The notes below the pieces were generated by a model. That model searched no databases. It saw only the letters and a list, made by a program, of their open reading frames with translations, and was not told the origin of the DNA. The translations under genes and the position numbers were made by a program. 64,000 nucleotides of DNA, from positions 5,856,001-5,920,000 of the forward strand of contig OZ244207.1 in NCBI GenBank assembly GCA_965216875.1. The letters are read 5' to 3'. Positions within the stretch are counted from its first letter, which is position 1; every line of letters begins with the position of its first letter. This DNA comes from Rubripirellula sp. Lineage in GTDB: Bacteria > Planctomycetota > Planctomycetia > Pirellulales > Pirellulaceae. Below are positions 14,328 to 22,168 of the stretch, piece by piece.

Positions 14328-14513
14328 GTTATGCCCCAACAATAGGTTCTGTGTTTTTCGTGTCATTTCGATAACTCAACGACATGACCTTATCATCTGT
14401 TGCCCACGTGTACCAAACTCGATTCTTGCAAACGTGTTATCCTTTTTCCACATCGCATGCCTGAGGCCATCGCCGAGTCTTGCGTCAGAGTCTTTCCCAA
14501 TCATTCCGAAAGC

Positions 14514-15380
14514 ATGAGTACGAAGAAACCCAAATCAAAGGCAAAAGCCAAGCCCTTGAAGTGTCATCTCATTTCCGTCGGCGCCGGCAGTCTGGTGTGG
14601 CAAATCGTTCACGCGGTGATGGGCCAGTACCCCACCGTGAAGTCACAGCTCGTCACGCACGCGTTTGTCGACACAGCGAAGAAGGTCGAATCAACGCTCA
14701 AGAAGGTTCGCGGCAAGAATGTTTGCGTTTTCCATGCGTTACTCGATTCGGAAGCGAAAGCGAAGGTCACCGAATACTGCCAAGACCGCGGAATCCCTGA
14801 ACACGACATGACCGAACAGTTGCTGGGCTTCGTCACTGGAATCACTGGCGTCGAAGCAAGCAATGACCCATCCGAGGAACTTGACGATGGCTATTTTCGT
14901 CGGCTCGATGCACTTGAATTCACATTACAGCATGACGATTCGCGGCGTCTTGAATCCATTAGCGATGCCGACATTGTTGTGGTTGGACTGAGCCGAGTGA
15001 GCAAGACGCCGACGTCTTGTTACCTGGGCAGCATGGGGTTTAAGGTCGCCAACGTATCACTCGTTCCCGAGATCGGACTTCCTAAAGAGCTCAAGCGAGG
15101 CATGAAGAAGAAGGTGGTCGCCTTCACGATTCAACCCAAACGCCTTCAACAGATTCGTTCGCGTCGCATGCAGGTCAACAAGTTCGACGCCACGCTACCG
15201 GCCCCGGAAGACGATGGTGAATTCAACTACACGAGCTTGAAGAGCATCATTCGCGAAGTGATGGACGCCGAAGCGATCTACCGCGACCGCGAGTTTCCGA
15301 TCATTGACATCACCGACCATACGGTCGAGGCGACAGCGACCACCGTCCTGCAACAACTCAATCTACAACGCCCCGAGTGA
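14514..15380 (+). CDS. PEP synthetase/PPDK regulatory protein (kinase-pyrophosphorylase, DUF299)
   Basis: YFRRLDALEFTLQHDD, ADIVVVGLSRVSKTPTSCYL, KVANVSL, IIDITDHTVEATA. Confidence 0.9.
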   Translation: MSTKKPKSKAKAKPLKCHLISVGAGSLVWQIVHAVMGQYPTVKSQLVTHAFVDTAKKVESTLKKVRGKNVCVFHALLDSEAKAKVTEYCQDRGIPEHDMTEQLLGFVTGITGVEASNDPSEELDDGYFRRLDALEFTLQHDDSRRLESISDADIVVVGLSRVSKTPTSCYLGSMGFKVANVSLVPEIGLPKELKRGMKKKVVAFTIQPKRLQQIRSRRMQVNKFDATLPAPEDDGEFNYTSLKSIIREVMDAEAIYRDREFPIIDITDHTVEATATTVLQQLNLQRPE

Positions 15381-15406
15381 CGCCCCCACAGCAATCACTC
15401 TCGCCT

Positions 15407-15547
15407 CGGGGACAGAGCACCTTCGTCACCTTAGCGGGGTCGGCGCACTCACGCCCGGGGACAGAGCACCAGTTTTCGTTTGTTTTCCAATCTCACCCGA
15501 TTTTCCGGGGGACAGAGCACCTCAACCCTACCTCGGGGACAGAGCAT
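15407..15547 (+). repeat. Left array of GGGGACAGAGCAC motif (4 near-exact copies plus 1 degenerate)
   Basis: Copies at ~15408, 15457, 15508 and 15535, degenerate copy at ~15436; all on the + strand, with unrelated spacers. Confidence 0.9.
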
Positions 15548-15695
15548 GATTGTTTGATTTGATGTTATTGACGGTCGATACGGGTCGTTGTCCAATAACT
15601 TTTCCCGTCGAGATCGAAGAGCGATCCCATCGACGCCAGCGAACTGGCTCATCAAGACGAGCTCCAGTCGCATTCTTCTTTTTTGGGGCTCTTCG

Positions 15696-16748
15696 ATGAG
15701 TAGGTGTTCTCGCCGTGATGTGTTTGATCCCGCCGAGGTCAATGTAGCTCACATCATCAATCGCACAGTGCGAAGGTGCTACCTTTTTGGCCACGACCAA
15801 CTAACCGGTACAAACTTCGACCACCGAAAGGAATGGATTGAAGAATTACTTGAGCATTTCGCGGCCAACTTCGGCATCGACCTGCTCTGCTTCGCGATCC
15901 TTTCGAACCACTATCATCTCATCCTGAGGACGCGGCCGGATGTTGTGGCCACGTGGGACGACACCGAAGTGGCTCGCCGCTGGCTAATGATCTGCCCTCA
16001 TCGCAAAGTCGATGGCAGACCAGCAGAACCGAGCGAATCAGAGTTGAACATGATTCGCCATTGCCCGGACAAACTTGCTGAGATTCGTAAACGGTTGTCT
16101 GATCTCTCGTGGTGGGTACGGCTGCTGAATCAACGCGTAGCCCAGCGAGCCAACCGCGAGGAAGCGGAACATGGCCGATTTTGGCAAGACCGATTCAAAG
16201 CCATACGTATTGTTGACGAAGAATCGTTGCTCGCATGTGCTGCCTACGTTGAACTGAATCCGATTCGGGCGGCGATTGCCGAAACGCTCGAGGACAGCGA
16301 CCACACTTCAATCCAACGTCGCATCAATGCCGAGTTTTCACAAGTGGCGGCGAAAGATGAAGACTCACGCAGACATTCGCAAGATTTCCTCGCTCCACTA
16401 ACCCTCGCAGAACAGGCTGGGGACGTCGGTCCAATGCCAAGCCATACGAAGCGCAGGTGCAGCGACAAAGGGTTTCTGGCAATCGACATTGAAAGCTACA
16501 TTGAACTGCTTGAGTGGACAGCTTGTAAATCAGTGCAACGCGAACGCGGTGCCACAACTGTCTTTATACCGTCGATCCTTGGGCGTTTTCGAATCGAGCC
16601 ACGCAGTTGGCTGGAGCTCGTTCTAGCCTTCAGCAAAACCTTCCCGATGGTCGCTGGCCGCTGCGATCGAGTCGACGGTCTACGGAGTAACGAAACCGGT
16701 CGCCGTTTTCGCGTGACCCCCAACGCAAGACGCCTGCTACCCGCCTAG
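15696..16748 (+). CDS. HUH (Y1) tyrosine transposase, RAYT/COG1943-like long form
   Basis: HIINRTVRR, FAILSNHYHLIL (HUH), GRFWQDRFKA, CAAYVELNPIRA (catalytic Tyr followed by NP). Confidence 0.88.
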   Translation: MSRCSRRDVFDPAEVNVAHIINRTVRRCYLFGHDQLTGTNFDHRKEWIEELLEHFAANFGIDLLCFAILSNHYHLILRTRPDVVATWDDTEVARRWLMICPHRKVDGRPAEPSESELNMIRHCPDKLAEIRKRLSDLSWWVRLLNQRVAQRANREEAEHGRFWQDRFKAIRIVDEESLLACAAYVELNPIRAAIAETLEDSDHTSIQRRINAEFSQVAAKDEDSRRHSQDFLAPLTLAEQAGDVGPMPSHTKRRCSDKGFLAIDIESYIELLEWTACKSVQRERGATTVFIPSILGRFRIEPRSWLELVLAFSKTFPMVAGRCDRVDGLRSNETGRRFRVTPNARRLLPA

Positions 16749-16881
16749 CTGCCTTCTCACAATAGCCGTGCCACATCTACCTGCTACCGGTAAGCGCAAC
16801 TTGCGGGAATAGATGCGCGTCTGCACTAGGCACTCGATATAAGTCGTGAAACGTACGGTGAGTTTGTCGATCCCACGCAAC

Positions 16882-17457
16882 GGTGCTCTGGCGCCGTAAA
16901 GAGACCAGGCCAAAAACCCTCATCGGGAATCCAAGCTGCGTCGATTGCGGGAATCCGGGCCACCCGAAAGTGCACTGTCCCCAGACGAGAGGGGAGAGTT
17001 GGGTGCTCTGTCCCCGGTGGGAGGATGCTTTCGGCTCACCAGCGCGTGATGCCCGATGAAGAACTCGGGGCAAAGTGCTCTGTCCCTTGGACAGTACTTC
17101 TTGGACAGTACTTTGAGAGGATGCCTGCATCCTCCCAAAGAGACTCTGGTGCTCTGTCCCCGTCGAGCCCCGTCGAGCCGTCGCTGGTGCTCTGTCCCCG
17201 TCGAGCGCCGCTCCGTCGAGCGCAGGTAAAGTGCTATGTCCCCATTGGGAGAATGCGCCCATTGGATTTGCTCCCGCGATCCTGCCTATGCTCTGGCCCC
17301 CAACGATCCCAACGATCTCCAACGATCCTGGCCCCCAACGATCCAACGATCGGTGCTCTGTCCCCAGACGACTGTCCTGTCCCCAGACGACTGTCATCGG
17401 TGCTCTGGCCCCAGACGAGAAATGAGAGTTGGGTGCTCTGTCCCCGGTGGGAGGATG
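16882..17457 (-). repeat. Right array of the same motif in inverted orientation (GTGCTCTGTCCCC, ~11 copies)
   Basis: Copies at ~16883, 16970, 17003, 17075, 17149, 17187, 17231, 17288, 17353, 17400 and 17433; a ~49-bp direct repeat at 16979-17027 and 17409-17457. Confidence 0.9.
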
Positions 17458-17523: not shown

Positions 17524-20500
17524 TCAAAACAGGCTTCCTGTCTCGAGCAGCACCAACTCATCCTCGCTTTCTTCCAAGAAACCTCCGTCGCCAAACGCGG
17601 CGATTGCAGCATCGACGGCTTCGGCTTCACTCCTCGCTGCAAGACTCTCGCGTGCAAGATCGTTGATGACCAACAACGCATCGAGAGACGTGATGTCGCC
17701 GTCCCCACCAACATCAAGATCCAAACCGGTCGCCTGTGCCTCGTCAGCGATCGTCGCCTGACTGCCAAAGCGGTTTAGAAAGTTGATGACCAGCAGTGAA
17801 TCGAGCGCAGTGACTTGTCCGTCACGATTCACATCAGCCGAAAGCCGCGAATTCTGGAGACTAACACTGCGTGCCGAACAGGCTCCATCGACGCCGCTGC
17901 AAACATCTGCCTCAGGATCAAACAACAAGACAGTGATGGTCGCGATCGGCATCAACCCATTAAATGCTGATTCGAGCGTCCCGGTCGGAACCCCCGTCCC
18001 AATGAATTCGTCAAGTCCAGCGTGCCGATGAATGACGCCTCCTTCGTCGACCGAGTCGCCACCTTCGGTTGAATAGGCCGCGCCGCCCAGTGGGTCGTTT
18101 ACCTCGGTGCCAGCGTCGAGGATGTCGCGACCGTATATCGTGATCTGCCGTGCTCCCTGGAAGTTACCGAGTTCGTCGAACAACTCGTACTGCCGTGAAT
18201 TGCGATTGGCTACAAACGCATCATTCGACGGAATCACCATACTGACGAAACTGAAGAAACGATTGAGGCTCGAATCCTCCACCTCAATCACTTGTGTCGC
18301 GATCTCACCCGGTTCGATGACAGGAGCCCCCGCAAACCCTTGAGGTGCAGCGATGACGGAACTGGTACCGTCTGACTCTCCTGCAAAACGTGCAACGAGT
18401 TCGCTCGTGTCACCCTCTTCGGCAATCAACTCCAACCCACCAAATTCGGACGCCAATGCTCCTCCGCGAGCGACTTCGAACGCGCCATCGTGAAACCCTA
18501 CAAAGAAGGGCGTGAGTGCCAGTCCGCCCTCCGGCGTCAACGATTCGATCTCAACCTGCAGCCGCACGCCCACATCGACTTGAAACGCACCAACAACGTC
18601 AGACTCACTGGCTTGGCCAAGCGTATCACTCACTTCACCGGGGCGCAGATTGACGGTATACCGCCCATTGTCGCGTCCGGTGAATTGGCCGTCTTGAGTT
18701 GTCACCGTGTAGGTCGCGGTTACCGTCGTGGGTGTCGTTCCGATCGCCGCATCCGTCTCCACTGCAGTCACCGTCAACTGCCTAGCCAATGGCCCAACCA
18801 CTGCGATGTCTTCGATTCCGATCGATGTCGGGTCAATGCCAGATGGATCGCTATAGGTGACATGAACCTCGTGCGTTGTCGCCCCCGCAACCACGACATC
18901 GTCGGCCGCGACGCTGGCGGTCGGCCCATCGCTGTCGACCGGCAGCGACGTTCCATCTGTCAAACTGATTGTGATGCGTGCCAGTGGCGTATCGCTCACA
19001 AAAGCAGACTCGAGCGTTTCACCTGTCGGCAATCCGGATCCGATGAAGTCGTCCAGCCCTTGGTGCCGCGTGATCACACCGTTCTCATCCACGCCATCGC
19101 CGCCTTCAGTCGAGAAGGCAGCCCCGCCGTCCACCTGATTCAGTTCCGTTCCGGCATCCAAAACGTCGCGTCCGGTCAACGTGATCGTTTGCGTTCCCAA
19201 AAAGAAACCATCTTCATCAAACAATTCGTAGGCCCGCGCGTTTAGGTTGGCAAAGAACGCATCGTTAGATGGAATCAGCATGCTCGCGAAACTGAAGTAC
19301 CGATTCAAGTTGGTATCGAGAACCGAGAGCGTTTGTGATGCCACTTCACCAGGTTCAATGACCGGCGCGCCAGCGAATCCCTCGGGCGCGACAAGGACGG
19401 TATCGACACCACTTGATTCGGCTGCAAACCGAGCAACGACACCCGAGACATCCCCTTCTTCGGCGAGTGCCTCCAAACCACCAAACTCGGCGGCGACAGC
19501 GCCGGCTCGAGCAAGTTGGAAGTTGCCCTCATGCACGCCCACCCAGAACGGAGTTTGTGCCAAGCCCCCTTCGGCTGCGAGATTCTCGACAGTGATTGTC
19601 AGTTGCACGGGCACCAACACCTGTAATGATCCAAGCGCTTCCGCGGTAACTTCGTTTCCAAACACGTCACCCACTTCGCCATCAGCCAATGTGATCGTGT
19701 ATAGCCCGTTGTCAAAAGTCGAATACGGATCGCCGTCGGCGGTTGCGATTTGGTAGGTCGCGGTCACTGTTCTCGGATCGGCAGTGTCAGCGTCCGTGGT
19801 GACACCGACCACTTCGAGTGGTTCGTTGAACAAGCCAGTCACTTCAATGTCGCGGGTGTCGATGGTTGAAACGTCGACACCCGAGGCATCGCTGTAGGTC
19901 ACGCGCACCTCATGCGTGTTTGCACCGGGACTCATCAAGTCGGTGATGTCCGCGTTTGCGGTCGGTGCCTTATCGTCAATCGCATCGGCGGGCGCGTCCG
20001 CAAGACTGATCGTGATGCGTCCGATCGGCGTCATGTTGCCAAATGCCTGGCCAAGCGTCCCCGTTGGGACTCCGGTTCCGATGAATTCATCCAAGCCGTC
20101 ATGGCGTCTGATAACGCCACCCTCATCCACCGATGTTCCCCCTTCGGTACTGTAGGCAGCGCCGCCGCCAACCTGGTTCACTTCAGTGCCGGCATCCCAG
20201 ATATCTTGTCCATAGAGCGTGATCGTGCGAGCGCCCGTGAAGTTGCCCGACCGGTCAAACAGCTCAATACCACGGGGGTCCAGGTTCGCAATGAATGCGT
20301 CGTTGGATGGAATCACCATGCTCGCGAAACTAAAAAATCGGTTTCGCTGCGGATCGCTCACGTCAAACGCTTCAAGTACCGACTCACCTGGCTCGAACAC
20401 AGGGGCTCCAGCGAATCCGTCGGGGGCAAAGATGACGGTCGCATCGTTCCCCGTCTCGGACTCGAAACGTGCGACCAATTCACTCGGATCACCATCTTCG

Positions 20501-21813
20501 GCGATCAGTTCCAAGCCTCCAAAATCACTCGCAACGCCGCCTGCACGAGCGACTTCGAAGTTGCCATTGTGAACACCGACAAAGACCGGCGTCTGCGCAA
20601 GCCCACCGAGTTCCGACAAGTTTTCAAACGTAACGTTCAACCGCACCGGAGCGTCTACGGTGAACTCACCAAGTCGTTGTTCAGCAGCTGTATGCGCAAA
20701 AGTGTCACCCACCTGGTCACCTAGCAATACGACGCTGTAGATACCATTGTCCAAATGCGTAAACGATCCCGAGTCGGGCGCGACACGATACGTTGCAACA
20801 ACTTCGCGCGGCGTCGTCCCGGCCGCTGCGTCCGTGGTCACAGACAAGACATCCAGCTGAGTCAAGAAAGGACTCGTCACGCGCAGATTGCTTGGCGTGA
20901 TGCTCGTCAGATCGATTCCCGATGGATCGCTGTAGGTGACCGCAATCTCGTGGTAGTCAGCGCGTTGAGTCAGATCGCTCGCGTCGAATTGCACACGAGG
21001 AGCCGTCGCATCGATCGGGTCGCTCGGGTTTGAGGCTTGAGAAATCGTGATTCGTGCAATCGGCGTCTGGGACTGGAACGCGCGTCCAAGTGTCTCGCCT
21101 GTAGGTAACTCCGAACCGATGAAGTCGTCCAGGCCCGTGTGTTGAGCGATCACGCCATTTTCGTCTGCCGACGTGCCACCCGCTGTTGCGAACGCCGCTC
21201 CGCCGGCTGGATCATTCACCTCAGTCCCAGCATCCCATACCTGCGAGCCGTAGACGACAATCGTTTGAGGCCCGAGGAAATCGCCCGAACTGTTGAAGAT
21301 GCGATAGGCTTGCTGGTTCAAGTTACCAATGAACGCGTCGTTGGACGGAATCAGCATCGAGGCAAAGCTAAAGTACTGACTCTGCAGTGGATCATCGACG
21401 GTGAACTGTTCGGTGACGACTTCGCCAGCCTCGAACACGGGCGCTCCCGCGAAACCATCCGGCGCCAAAACCACCGCATCGTTGCCAACGCCATCGGCCG
21501 CAAATCGAGCGACAAGTTCACTCGGATCACCTTCTTCGGCAATGAGTTCAAGCCCACCGAAATCGGATGCCGCAGCACCGAGATCTCCCAAATCGAAGCT
21601 ACCGTCATGCGCCGCGATCCAAACGGGCGTGTTCCCCAAACCTGTTTCCTCGGACAGGTTCTCGATGCTGATCTGTAACACCTCCGCAGCCAACAAGCGT
21701 CGACGTTCAAGCGATTCGAGATTCAGCTTGCGTGAGTTTGTTTTGCGATTGGAAGATTGATTAGACAAGCCGGAACGACGCGCCGATTTAGCGCGGGCAA
21801 AAAGCGATCTCAT
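17524..21813 (-). CDS. Large planctomycete surface protein: 4 spondin_N-like domains, 3 Ig-like spacers, C-terminal dockerin-type domain
   Basis: LNLESLERRRLLAA N-terminal motif; four copies of TP(V/F)..G.H.G.F...LELIAEEGD...SFASM.IPSNDAF...DAGTE.N; three VTYSD.SG.D...VTATY modules; DVNRDGQVTALDSLLVIN dockerin. Start set at MRSLF. Confidence 0.88.
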   Translation of the reverse strand: MRSLFARAKSARRSGLSNQSSNRKTNSRKLNLESLERRRLLAAEVLQISIENLSEETGLGNTPVWIAAHDGSFDLGDLGAAASDFGGLELIAEEGDPSELVARFAADGVGNDAVVLAPDGFAGAPVFEAGEVVTEQFTVDDPLQSQYFSFASMLIPSNDAFIGNLNQQAYRIFNSSGDFLGPQTIVVYGSQVWDAGTEVNDPAGGAAFATAGGTSADENGVIAQHTGLDDFIGSELPTGETLGRAFQSQTPIARITISQASNPSDPIDATAPRVQFDASDLTQRADYHEIAVTYSDPSGIDLTSITPSNLRVTSPFLTQLDVLSVTTDAAAGTTPREVVATYRVAPDSGSFTHLDNGIYSVVLLGDQVGDTFAHTAAEQRLGEFTVDAPVRLNVTFENLSELGGLAQTPVFVGVHNGNFEVARAGGVASDFGGLELIAEDGDPSELVARFESETGNDATVIFAPDGFAGAPVFEPGESVLEAFDVSDPQRNRFFSFASMVIPSNDAFIANLDPRGIELFDRSGNFTGARTITLYGQDIWDAGTEVNQVGGGAAYSTEGGTSVDEGGVIRRHDGLDEFIGTGVPTGTLGQAFGNMTPIGRITISLADAPADAIDDKAPTANADITDLMSPGANTHEVRVTYSDASGVDVSTIDTRDIEVTGLFNEPLEVVGVTTDADTADPRTVTATYQIATADGDPYSTFDNGLYTITLADGEVGDVFGNEVTAEALGSLQVLVPVQLTITVENLAAEGGLAQTPFWVGVHEGNFQLARAGAVAAEFGGLEALAEEGDVSGVVARFAAESSGVDTVLVAPEGFAGAPVIEPGEVASQTLSVLDTNLNRYFSFASMLIPSNDAFFANLNARAYELFDEDGFFLGTQTITLTGRDVLDAGTELNQVDGGAAFSTEGGDGVDENGVITRHQGLDDFIGSGLPTGETLESAFVSDTPLARITISLTDGTSLPVDSDGPTASVAADDVVVAGATTHEVHVTYSDPSGIDPTSIGIEDIAVVGPLARQLTVTAVETDAAIGTTPTTVTATYTVTTQDGQFTGRDNGRYTVNLRPGEVSDTLGQASESDVVGAFQVDVGVRLQVEIESLTPEGGLALTPFFVGFHDGAFEVARGGALASEFGGLELIAEEGDTSELVARFAGESDGTSSVIAAPQGFAGAPVIEPGEIATQVIEVEDSSLNRFFSFVSMVIPSNDAFVANRNSRQYELFDELGNFQGARQITIYGRDILDAGTEVNDPLGGAAYSTEGGDSVDEGGVIHRHAGLDEFIGTGVPTGTLESAFNGLMPIATITVLLFDPEADVCSGVDGACSARSVSLQNSRLSADVNRDGQVTALDSLLVINFLNRFGSQATIADEAQATGLDLDVGGDGDITSLDALLVINDLARESLAARSEAEAVDAAIAAFGDGGFLEESEDELVLLETGSLF

Positions 21814-22168
21814 TTCGAATCCGAGAGGCAGGCGACATGAAGGCTGAAAAGATAACTGCCACGAAATGAGCTTCGAATAAGCGCGCCCGCCACGATTTGG
21901 GATGAAACATTCGCACGAAAAACATGCGAATCGAGCGTTGCGCTCGCCGCCCAAAAACGCCCTCCTCGCTGCCAAACGTTAGCGAGCAAACATGAAGACG
22001 AGCCAACCGTTCGCTGCGATACACACGGCCGTTTTATCGTCGATGTTTCTCACGAACATGCGTGCGCTGGGTGGCTCAGATGGTCCTAGTAAAGATCCGC
22101 GCGCCGACACCTGCGTGATCGACTTTTTCTGAAGCCCGCAAAAAAAGTCGTCGAAGATTCGCCGCTGC

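Follow-up and report, generated by a model that had tools for sequence, protein, structure and literature searches.

The window analysed here is a 64,000-nt stretch of a Rubripirellula genome. It contains an intact transposase gene, starting with an ATG at 15696, that is enclosed by two arrays of a 13-nt motif (Table 1). Together, the gene and its arrays occupy the space between two host genes. The left array begins ∼27 nt past the stop codon of the upstream gene. The convergent downstream ORF (17524–21975, minus strand) presumably encodes a protein with several long internal repeats and a dockerin-like tail. A promoter scan of the element, including its inner left end, yielded no passing sigma-70 site, and the two terminator-like sites in the element correspond to the level expected by chance.

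Table 1. Features of the transposase locus (positions in the window).
Feature	Position	Strand	Remarks
Flanking host gene, PPDK/PEP-synthase regulator	14400..15380	+	PF03618, E 2.6e-67; NF003742 above cut-off; outside the element
Left array	15396..15547	+	Motif copies at 15408, 15457, 15508 and 15535; spacers of 36, 38 and 14 nt
Inner left end, innermost motif to ATG	15535..15695	+	Conserved in two close paralogues
Y1-HUH transposase, 350 aa	15696..16748	+	Predicted RAYT fold, subclass-2.3-type insertions, long C-terminal tail
HuH motif (H72, H74)	15909..15917	+	Invariant in 115/115 aligned sequences
Catalytic Y184 with class-2 Y---NP signature	16245..16262	+	Y184 and N188 invariant; P189 at least 90%
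Inner right end, up to innermost right motif (16970-16982)	16749..16982	-	Homologues share sequence to ∼180-380 nt past the stop codon
Right array	16970..17456	-	Ten motif copies and further truncated copies
Flanking convergent host ORF, 1483 aa	17524..21975	-	Outside the element

At up to two mismatches, the 13-mer matched the window 15 times, compared with a mean of 1.41 and a maximum of 5 in 100 shuffled sequences. All 15 matches flank the transposase gene, in agreement with the original prediction that the motif occurs nowhere else in the window and that its copies point toward the gene from both sides. The predicted right-hand array of about 11 minus-strand copies was recovered as 11 matches from 16883 to 17445; that at 16883 has two mismatches, lies 87 nt inward of the others and may be a chance match. 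On the left, the plus-strand array was borne out with four copies instead of the five or so expected. The motif is also non-palindromic, as had been claimed: no hairpin was detected in it, and six of six folded stretches were no more stable than their shuffles (z −0.5 to +0.8). An Rfam search of the motif regions returned no match. A hairpin or RNA reading of the arrays was rejected on these two grounds. A short inverted repeat does occur in the inner left end (15564–15599).

The identification of the gene product as an HUH transposase held up. The protein matched Pfam PF01797 (Y1_Tnp) with an E-value of 1.6e-5 and scored 46.2 bits against the RAYT model NF047646, below the cut-off of 80. At E ≤ 1e-20, 2435 homologues were found, the named ones among the best 120 being from Planctomycetes; full-length matches of 31–35% identity occur in the Alteromonadales genera Pseudoalteromonas, Catenovulum and Shewanella. 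In an alignment of the query with 114 of its best 120 matches, S201 and S205 were nearly invariant in addition to the catalytic residues. According to Foldseek, the structure model (pLDDT 88.9) best matched E. coli TnpA_REP (4ER8; E 5e-4), with a Z-score of 11.7 and an RMSD of 3.2 over 160 residues, and the next-best fold match had a Z-score of 6.5 (2VHG). A sequence search of the PDB gave weak matches (E 0.17–0.5), the clear result coming from the fold comparison only.

In the model, the strand comprising residues 72–79 is followed by four inserted helices before the core helix starts at residue 137 (the β3–αC insertion), and 19 residues separate the strand at 17–23 from the helix at 43–58 (the β1–αA insertion). 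A profile scan of the whole protein gave no Pfam match to an HTH or DnaA_C C-terminal domain, and the fold comparison, run on the whole model, linked its C-terminal part to no known fold. The text of Quentin et al. (2018, bioRxiv 10.1101/279083) describes TnpA_Y1 subclass 2.3 by a Y---NP signature, a ∼55-aa β3–αC insertion, a ∼10-aa β1–αA insertion and a serine motif, in proteins of ∼325 aa that have a long C-terminal tail, include Alteromonadales members and occur in multiple copies. The window protein has the HuH motif, Y---NP, both insertions, the serine motif, the tail, a length within ∼325–350 aa and relatives in Alteromonadales. Judged by these published features, it is predicted to be a RAYT-fold Y1-HUH enzyme that fits subclass 2.3.

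To place the locus in its genome, we located further copies of the gene and the motif. The genome contains two paralogues at 77–78% identity, one at 40–41% and one fragment. The inner left end is 73% identical over 167 nt to both close paralogue loci. The paralogues have dN/dS values of 0.06–0.07 with dS near saturation, and the branch of the window protein is 0.28 long as compared to 0.07 and 0.09 for the paralogues. In the 8.26-Mb genome, the 13-mer occurs in 42 exact copies and in 84 copies with at most one mismatch. The motif, absent elsewhere in the window, does occur elsewhere in the genome, in clusters. A broader motif pattern yielded 17 clusters of at least three copies, 6 of them with a family gene within 2 kb and 11 without one. 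No cluster was found near the four other Y1 genes of the genome. Five relatives contain 1, 7, 0, 0 and 0 copies of the exact 13-mer.

Several of the gene-less arrays (G000:C1:6428108-6428903, 6555387-6556338, 6195540-6195991 and 4935610-4936783; L007, L009, L004) mix two motif variants, and several are polarised inward like a collapsed element. Some have 28–84-nt non-motif modules in common. These arrays are likely non-autonomous products. The window arrays had no non-motif module in common with the other 15 arrays of the genome at E < 1e-4. Near position 5625000 of the same contig (L010:1159-1612), we observed a one-ended remnant that retains 110 nt of the 3′ end of the gene, 90% identical to paralogue L002. 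Its right end is rearranged and carries a motif, and a left end was not found. At another locus (L008:1493-1540), two outward-facing motifs stand back to back with 8 nt between them, and a reiteration unit there obeys the 11-nt rule on both strands.

The window spacers are irregular in length (14–61 nt) and had been described as unique. This description does not hold for the right array: tested against mononucleotide shuffles, six of nine right spacers contained internal or within-array duplications at p ≤ 0.01 and eight of nine at p ≤ 0.035, as compared to none of the three left spacers. A block of 11 + 13 + 20 + 13 nt is present twice in the right array (16970–17026 and 17400–17456). Some spacers contain inverted copies, and a short inverted repeat inside a right-array spacer (17115–17136) may reflect fold-back synthesis. 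None of the 12 spacers (nine right, three left) matched the rest of the genome beyond chance, and the right array matched none of 50,697 phage records, so that the proposed search of spacers against host and phages came out negative.

To examine how the arrays are built, we collected 33 loci of the inverted type by hand, leaving out short contigs, near-duplicates and loci without a clear motif. These loci provided 64 ends, two loci having no right motif. The ends contained 85 exact tandem duplications, or 1.33 per end versus 0.02 per random 465-nt window. A full motif was present in the inner copy of 60 tandems, the remaining 25 not being counted; 58 units were unique, and 53 had an overlap of at most 3 nt. 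Among these 53 clean units, 49 restarted 6–12 nt 5′ of the first G of the motif, with a mode of 10. By midpoint, 43 units restarted within 7–12 nt, as compared to a null mean of 13 and maximum of 27 in 20,000 draws; this test overstates independence because many loci are sibling copies, the units having been deduplicated by sequence. The inner extent of the units is variable (−1 to 48 nt) and their length peaks at 16 nt. The start is thus fixed relative to the motif, and the end is not.

The junctions carry little homology. Overlaps of 0, 1 and 2 nt were found in 26, 13 and 12 of the 58 units, where 53, 29 and 12% are expected in the absence of homology; these 51 units are therefore near that expectation, and three units had overlaps of at least 10 nt. 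No dinucleotide is fixed at the restart: the 26 zero-homology junctions comprise 11 different dinucleotides, 14 have G as the first base and one has C^T, a proxy count in that a nested restart may be preceded by a base other than that of the original flank. In a looser parse, 113 of 227 junctions were complex or nested instead of simple tandems.

The same rule was found in other subsets. In this genome, 14 of 16 simple units start 7–12 nt 5′ of the motif, four of them in the right array of the window (12, 8, 8 and 11 nt 5′ of motifs 17087, 17161, 17300 and 17365) and six in gene-less arrays; this set overlaps the 64-end set at three loci. The three left spacers of the window contained no clean unit. 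In families with directly oriented motifs, 12 of 15 units followed the rule on the motif strand, with offsets set by aligning the motifs. In 7 of 12 loci, long partial duplications rejoin 8–15 nt outside the motif, the other loci having been missed by the script or having none found. A similar reiterated right end was present at one Pseudoalteromonas locus among four gammaproteobacterial loci inspected. Overall, the end arrays appear to be scars of an enzyme re-copying the tips of its own element, with a restart ∼10 nt outside the motif. The suggestion that the arrays resemble nested element ends was essentially right. Most units consist of 6–12 nt of adjacent flank and part of the element end.

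A second strain, represented by contigs of a sequencing run from another study (X5), carries the same element at the same site. As anticipated, array units differ between the strains. Over the 4.5 kb compared there are 36 substitutions, and five of six length changes fall inside the arrays, which make up 14% of the stretch. The left array of the second strain has two extra units, one of 8 nt and one longer, both restarting 7 nt before motif 15457, and its right array lacks 38, 9 and 47 nt; gains and losses are unpolarised. Two of the differences have overlaps of 23 and 10 nt, which ordinary slippage could explain. In the transposase gene, four of five substitutions change a residue; in the upstream gene, all seven are at third codon positions. 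Considering these residue changes and the lack of a recent sibling, the closest paralogues being 77–78% identical, the window copy may be decaying, with array turnover driven in trans or partly by slippage.

The family was then studied in relatives. Of 41 related genomes, 26 had a match, and the comparison covered 39 regions taken from six of these. Four related genomes of Pirellulaceae contain 2–9 near-identical copies each. The copy groups, of 7, 7, 5, 9, 2 and 3 members, are 89–99.5% identical and have unrelated flanks. Within-genome identities were 98.4–99.2% in G020 group A (6 pairs), 89–97% in G020 group B, 93–98% in G002, 93.5–99.2% in G001 group A (9 copies), 99.5% in G001 group B and ∼95% in G037. 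The copies have sequence in common from ∼90–400 nt before the ATG to 180–380 nt past the stop codon. From this near-identical, multi-copy occurrence in the sequenced relatives, we conclude that the element family is mobile.

The homologous enzymes are accompanied by polarised, non-palindromic motif arrays, as expected from the window. Most families have inward-facing motifs, and three groups have both motifs on one strand. The latter are L043–L061 (G020 groups A and B and G002). In two of these elements, L043 and L047, a right motif is followed by left-end sequence, as in the junction of a circle or concatemer. The G020-B motif can form a hairpin, and the G002 elements L057–L061 contain within the right end what we take to be a long palindromic REP-like sequence.

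The anticipated co-variation of motif and protein was also found. In a tree of 42 proteins, in which several distant rows have no called motif, the window protein belongs to a 12-member clade (support 98/94) in which its motif type is common to different genera. The three protein clades of G001 each have a motif of their own, and the elements of G020-B and G002, which are sisters, have related motifs. Read from the tree, motifs appear to track the protein and not the host.

Comparison of the copies also bears on how they insert. No target duplication was detectable in 28 elements (4.32 versus a cross-pair null of 4.20), the outer junctions being script-set and approximate. One family (L062–L070) has the same 5 nt just outside the left motif in nine of nine elements, which is either a target preference or a carried flank; other families do not keep such a 5-nt sequence. 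IS200/IS605 elements are characterised by a conserved target of 4–5 nt beside the left end. In a head-to-tail dimer, recognised by eye, a right motif with ∼9 nt is joined to the interior of a left end. Two G020 copies carry 249 and 276 nt from the right side of a third copy, closed by a new motif, and these captured stretches include ∼190–215 nt found nowhere else in that genome. Such copies indicate that relatives carry host DNA from earlier insertion sites. The predicted capture of sequence thus stands as hitch-hiking of flanks from earlier sites, seen in relatives and not in the window, and is otherwise not supported. That the unrelated spacers of the window are old flanks we infer only, because capture was seen in relatives and the window arrays had no module match.

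An empty site for the window locus was not found in two congeneric genomes, the neighbour gene being returned in one of the two at 44% identity, and no joint across the element was seen in the low-depth sequencing runs X6–X8. When loci were tested for clean insertion, one of 45, at an intergenic site, had syntenic flanks on both sides in this genome. According to Pfam scans of the reading frames in the flanks, at the outer ends of L067 and L063 a host gene (for an O-methyltransferase and a DDE transposase, respectively) is cut at one end of the element and not continued at the other. These cut genes hint at adjacent deletions; the examples are hand-picked and too few for a claim.

The window copy is best explained as an older, settled copy of a mobile Y1-HUH element in which the transposase gene lies between two inward-facing end motifs, and we consider this model as a whole to be probable. 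Its core, nicking ∼10 nt outside the motif followed by 3′-OH extension and rejoining of the 5′-phosphotyrosine end, is the best of the models considered and is likewise probably correct; nick position, strand and rejoining are read from the products. The enzyme would bind the non-hairpin motif and nick its G-rich strand ∼6–12 nt 5′ of it, in any flank. By established HUH chemistry, it would stay attached to the new 5′ end and leave a 3′-OH; in the text of PMC8266576, HUH enzymes leave a 5′-phosphotyrosine and a 3′-OH that can prime synthesis or resolve the link. A host polymerase would then extend the 3′-OH into the motif, usually by 9–18 nt in all and sometimes by hundreds, and the enzyme would rejoin the 5′ end to the extended 3′-OH, which yields a tandem unit whose start is fixed and whose end varies. 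A nick, extension and rejoining of this kind would produce exactly the fixed-start, variable-end, homology-free duplications observed. Repeated cycles would build the arrays, whose products are those described above, and the spacers would therefore be what remains of one flank after another and of the ends of the element itself. Head-to-tail partial copies, insertions without target duplication, captured old flanks and arrays lacking the gene could arise through long extensions and through joining to a 3′-OH elsewhere; of all steps, how the element gets to a new site is the least certain. Counting against the model, known Y1 enzymes use single-stranded hairpin substrates and cut at set dinucleotides, whereas no dinucleotide is fixed here.

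Other mechanisms must be weighed against this one. In a version set at the replication fork, the enzyme would cut single-stranded parental DNA ∼10 nt 5′ of the motif and join it to the 3′-OH of a nascent sister strand stalled in the motif, with no local extension. Its products would be identical, and the text of Quentin et al. (2018, bioRxiv 10.1101/279083) describes Y1 transposases as needing ssDNA, mostly of the lagging strand. Yet both ends reiterate even though their motifs lie on opposite strands of the same copy, and unit lengths peak near 16 nt, as for a short repair patch; we regard the fork version as unlikely. It is quite improbable that the enzyme places the first motif only and that the host does the rest, through slippage or template switching caused by G-rich motifs or bound protein. 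The long overlaps in 3 of 58 units and in two strain differences (23 and 10 nt), together with the inverted copies in some spacers, indicate that slippage surely acts on existing arrays. However, slippage needs homology, which is zero in 26 of 58 units, and it would not fix the start at 6–12 nt in unrelated flanks.

The element could also belong to a domesticated, REPtron-like system, in which an immobile enzyme retained by the host spreads motif modules round the genome. This genome has no recent copy of the gene, the paralogues show dN/dS of 0.06–0.07, 11 of 17 arrays are gene-less, some having common non-motif modules, and the best fold match is the E. coli RAYT. Relatives, however, carry the element in multiple near-identical copies, the motif has neither hairpin nor GTAG foot, the RAYT model score is 46 against a cut-off of 80, and the locus is not common to congeners in the one possible comparison (the neighbour gene in one of two genomes, at 44%, its flank uninspected). 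We judge domestication to be highly improbable. An array that acquires and stores foreign sequence for a function, as in CRISPR systems, is a reading that is largely refuted already and would explain, at most, the different flank sequences between motif copies and the finding that host DNA can be carried along. CRISPR arrays have a regular repeat–spacer period and foreign-derived spacers, neither of which is seen here: spacer lengths are irregular, most units are self-derived, spacers lack genome matches beyond chance and phage matches, no Rfam family matched, and directly next to the element lie a gene for a metabolic regulator and a large unrelated ORF. Read in the CRISPR sense, the predicted sequence-capturing array is likewise not supported.

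Returning to the nick, extension and rejoining model, a wider claim can be put forward tentatively, as one that falls a little short of probable: these elements may form a widespread transposon family with a single-tyrosine HUH enzyme that would recognise a plain duplex motif, nick ∼10 nt away in any sequence and rejoin to polymerase-extended 3′ ends at both termini. If true, Y1 enzymes would have a third transposition chemistry in addition to peel-and-paste and REP processing, and the end arrays would record, in order, where the element had inserted before and its cycles of nicking and copying. Such a mechanism would also provide a concrete route for a transposase to seed short-repeat clusters, with a bearing on the origin of REP-like families. 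A compact, motif-directed, distance-set nickase-ligase with a clade-varying motif could be a useful tool. TIRYT and subclass 2.3 proteins appear without substrate or mechanism in the texts of PMC3733652 and bioRxiv 10.1101/279083. From the locus and its relatives come a cognate motif, a prediction of where and on which strand the nick lies, and evidence that the elements actively transpose, making cleavage and strand transfer testable.

Some of what was found is already known. The gene-plus-motif association had been called uncharacterised; it matches the description of TIRtrons by Di Nocera et al. (2013, PMC3733652), in whose text a RAYT-like gene (TIRYT) is bracketed by inverted repeats that are not REPs and have GGGGWSAS in common. 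According to the same text, single, paired or grouped copies of the repeats are found elsewhere too, and R. baltica has many genes of this kind. In the window motif, the first 8 nt fit GGGGWSAS; the motif faces inward on both sides and repeats occur elsewhere in the genome. The comparison covers the running text of that paper, which describes pairs of terminal repeats only and mentions neither reiterated ends nor a restart rule, mobility in multiple copies or the capture of flanks. The protein class is likewise known, as subclass 2.3. For this subclass, the text of bioRxiv 10.1101/279083 reports that no flanking REP-like structures were found and that intragenomic identity is low, and it equates TIRYT with subclass 2.1, which has an HTH tail. 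Here, by contrast, ends of the GGGGWSAS type accompany a 2.3-type gene, which has near-identical copies in relatives. The reiteration rule of the ends is the part not found in print: a literature search whose scope did not extend to subscription journals, ISfinder, figures and bioRxiv supplements returned no description of reiterated ends or a restart rule, and none of reiterated ends was found in the text of PMC5581495, PMC3116915 and PMC9977147.

The REPtron of E. coli TnpA_REP/RAYT (4ER8; text of PMC8266576) resembles the element in its core fold (Z 11.7), a gene flanked by its cognate repeat and gene-less repeat clusters. REPtron REPs are hairpins with a GTAG foot that are cut at C|T, whereas the motif here has neither hairpin nor GTAG, restarts keep a set distance from it and the gene is itself mobile. 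The REPtron gene is rarely duplicated, which is true of this genome, but four related genomes have 2–9 near-identical copies. Identity with REPtrons was rejected on the lack of a hairpin or GTAG foot, the score of 46.2 versus 80 bits against NF047646 and the multi-copy relatives. Replitrons (PMC9977147) were set aside, being described in that text as eukaryotic and making target duplications.

IS200/IS605 elements (IS608, ISDra2) share the Y1 fold (Z 6.5 to 2VHG) and the lack of target duplication. They have Y---Q, subterminal hairpins, both ends processed on one strand and precise ends, whereas the window element has Y---NP, opposite-strand motifs and ragged, reiterated ends; identity was rejected on the absence of Y---Q and of subterminal hairpins. 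IS91/ISCR elements have a Y2 transposase, one oriIS and one terIS; in them, strand-displacement synthesis starts from the nick, and overshoot, tandem copies and transduction of flanks occur. AAV Rep, which has a helicase, binds a site without a hairpin and nicks some distance away from it. Flank transduction and tandem copies were seen in relatives of the window element as well. Both IS91/ISCR and AAV Rep differ in protein class from the Y1 RAYT fold predicted here, and identity with IS91/ISCR was rejected as the enzyme is Y1 and not Y2 and both ends reiterate in place of one origin and one terminus. Taken together, the element differs from REPtrons, IS200/IS605, IS91 and CRISPR arrays and, by analogy, may work partly like a rolling-circle element.
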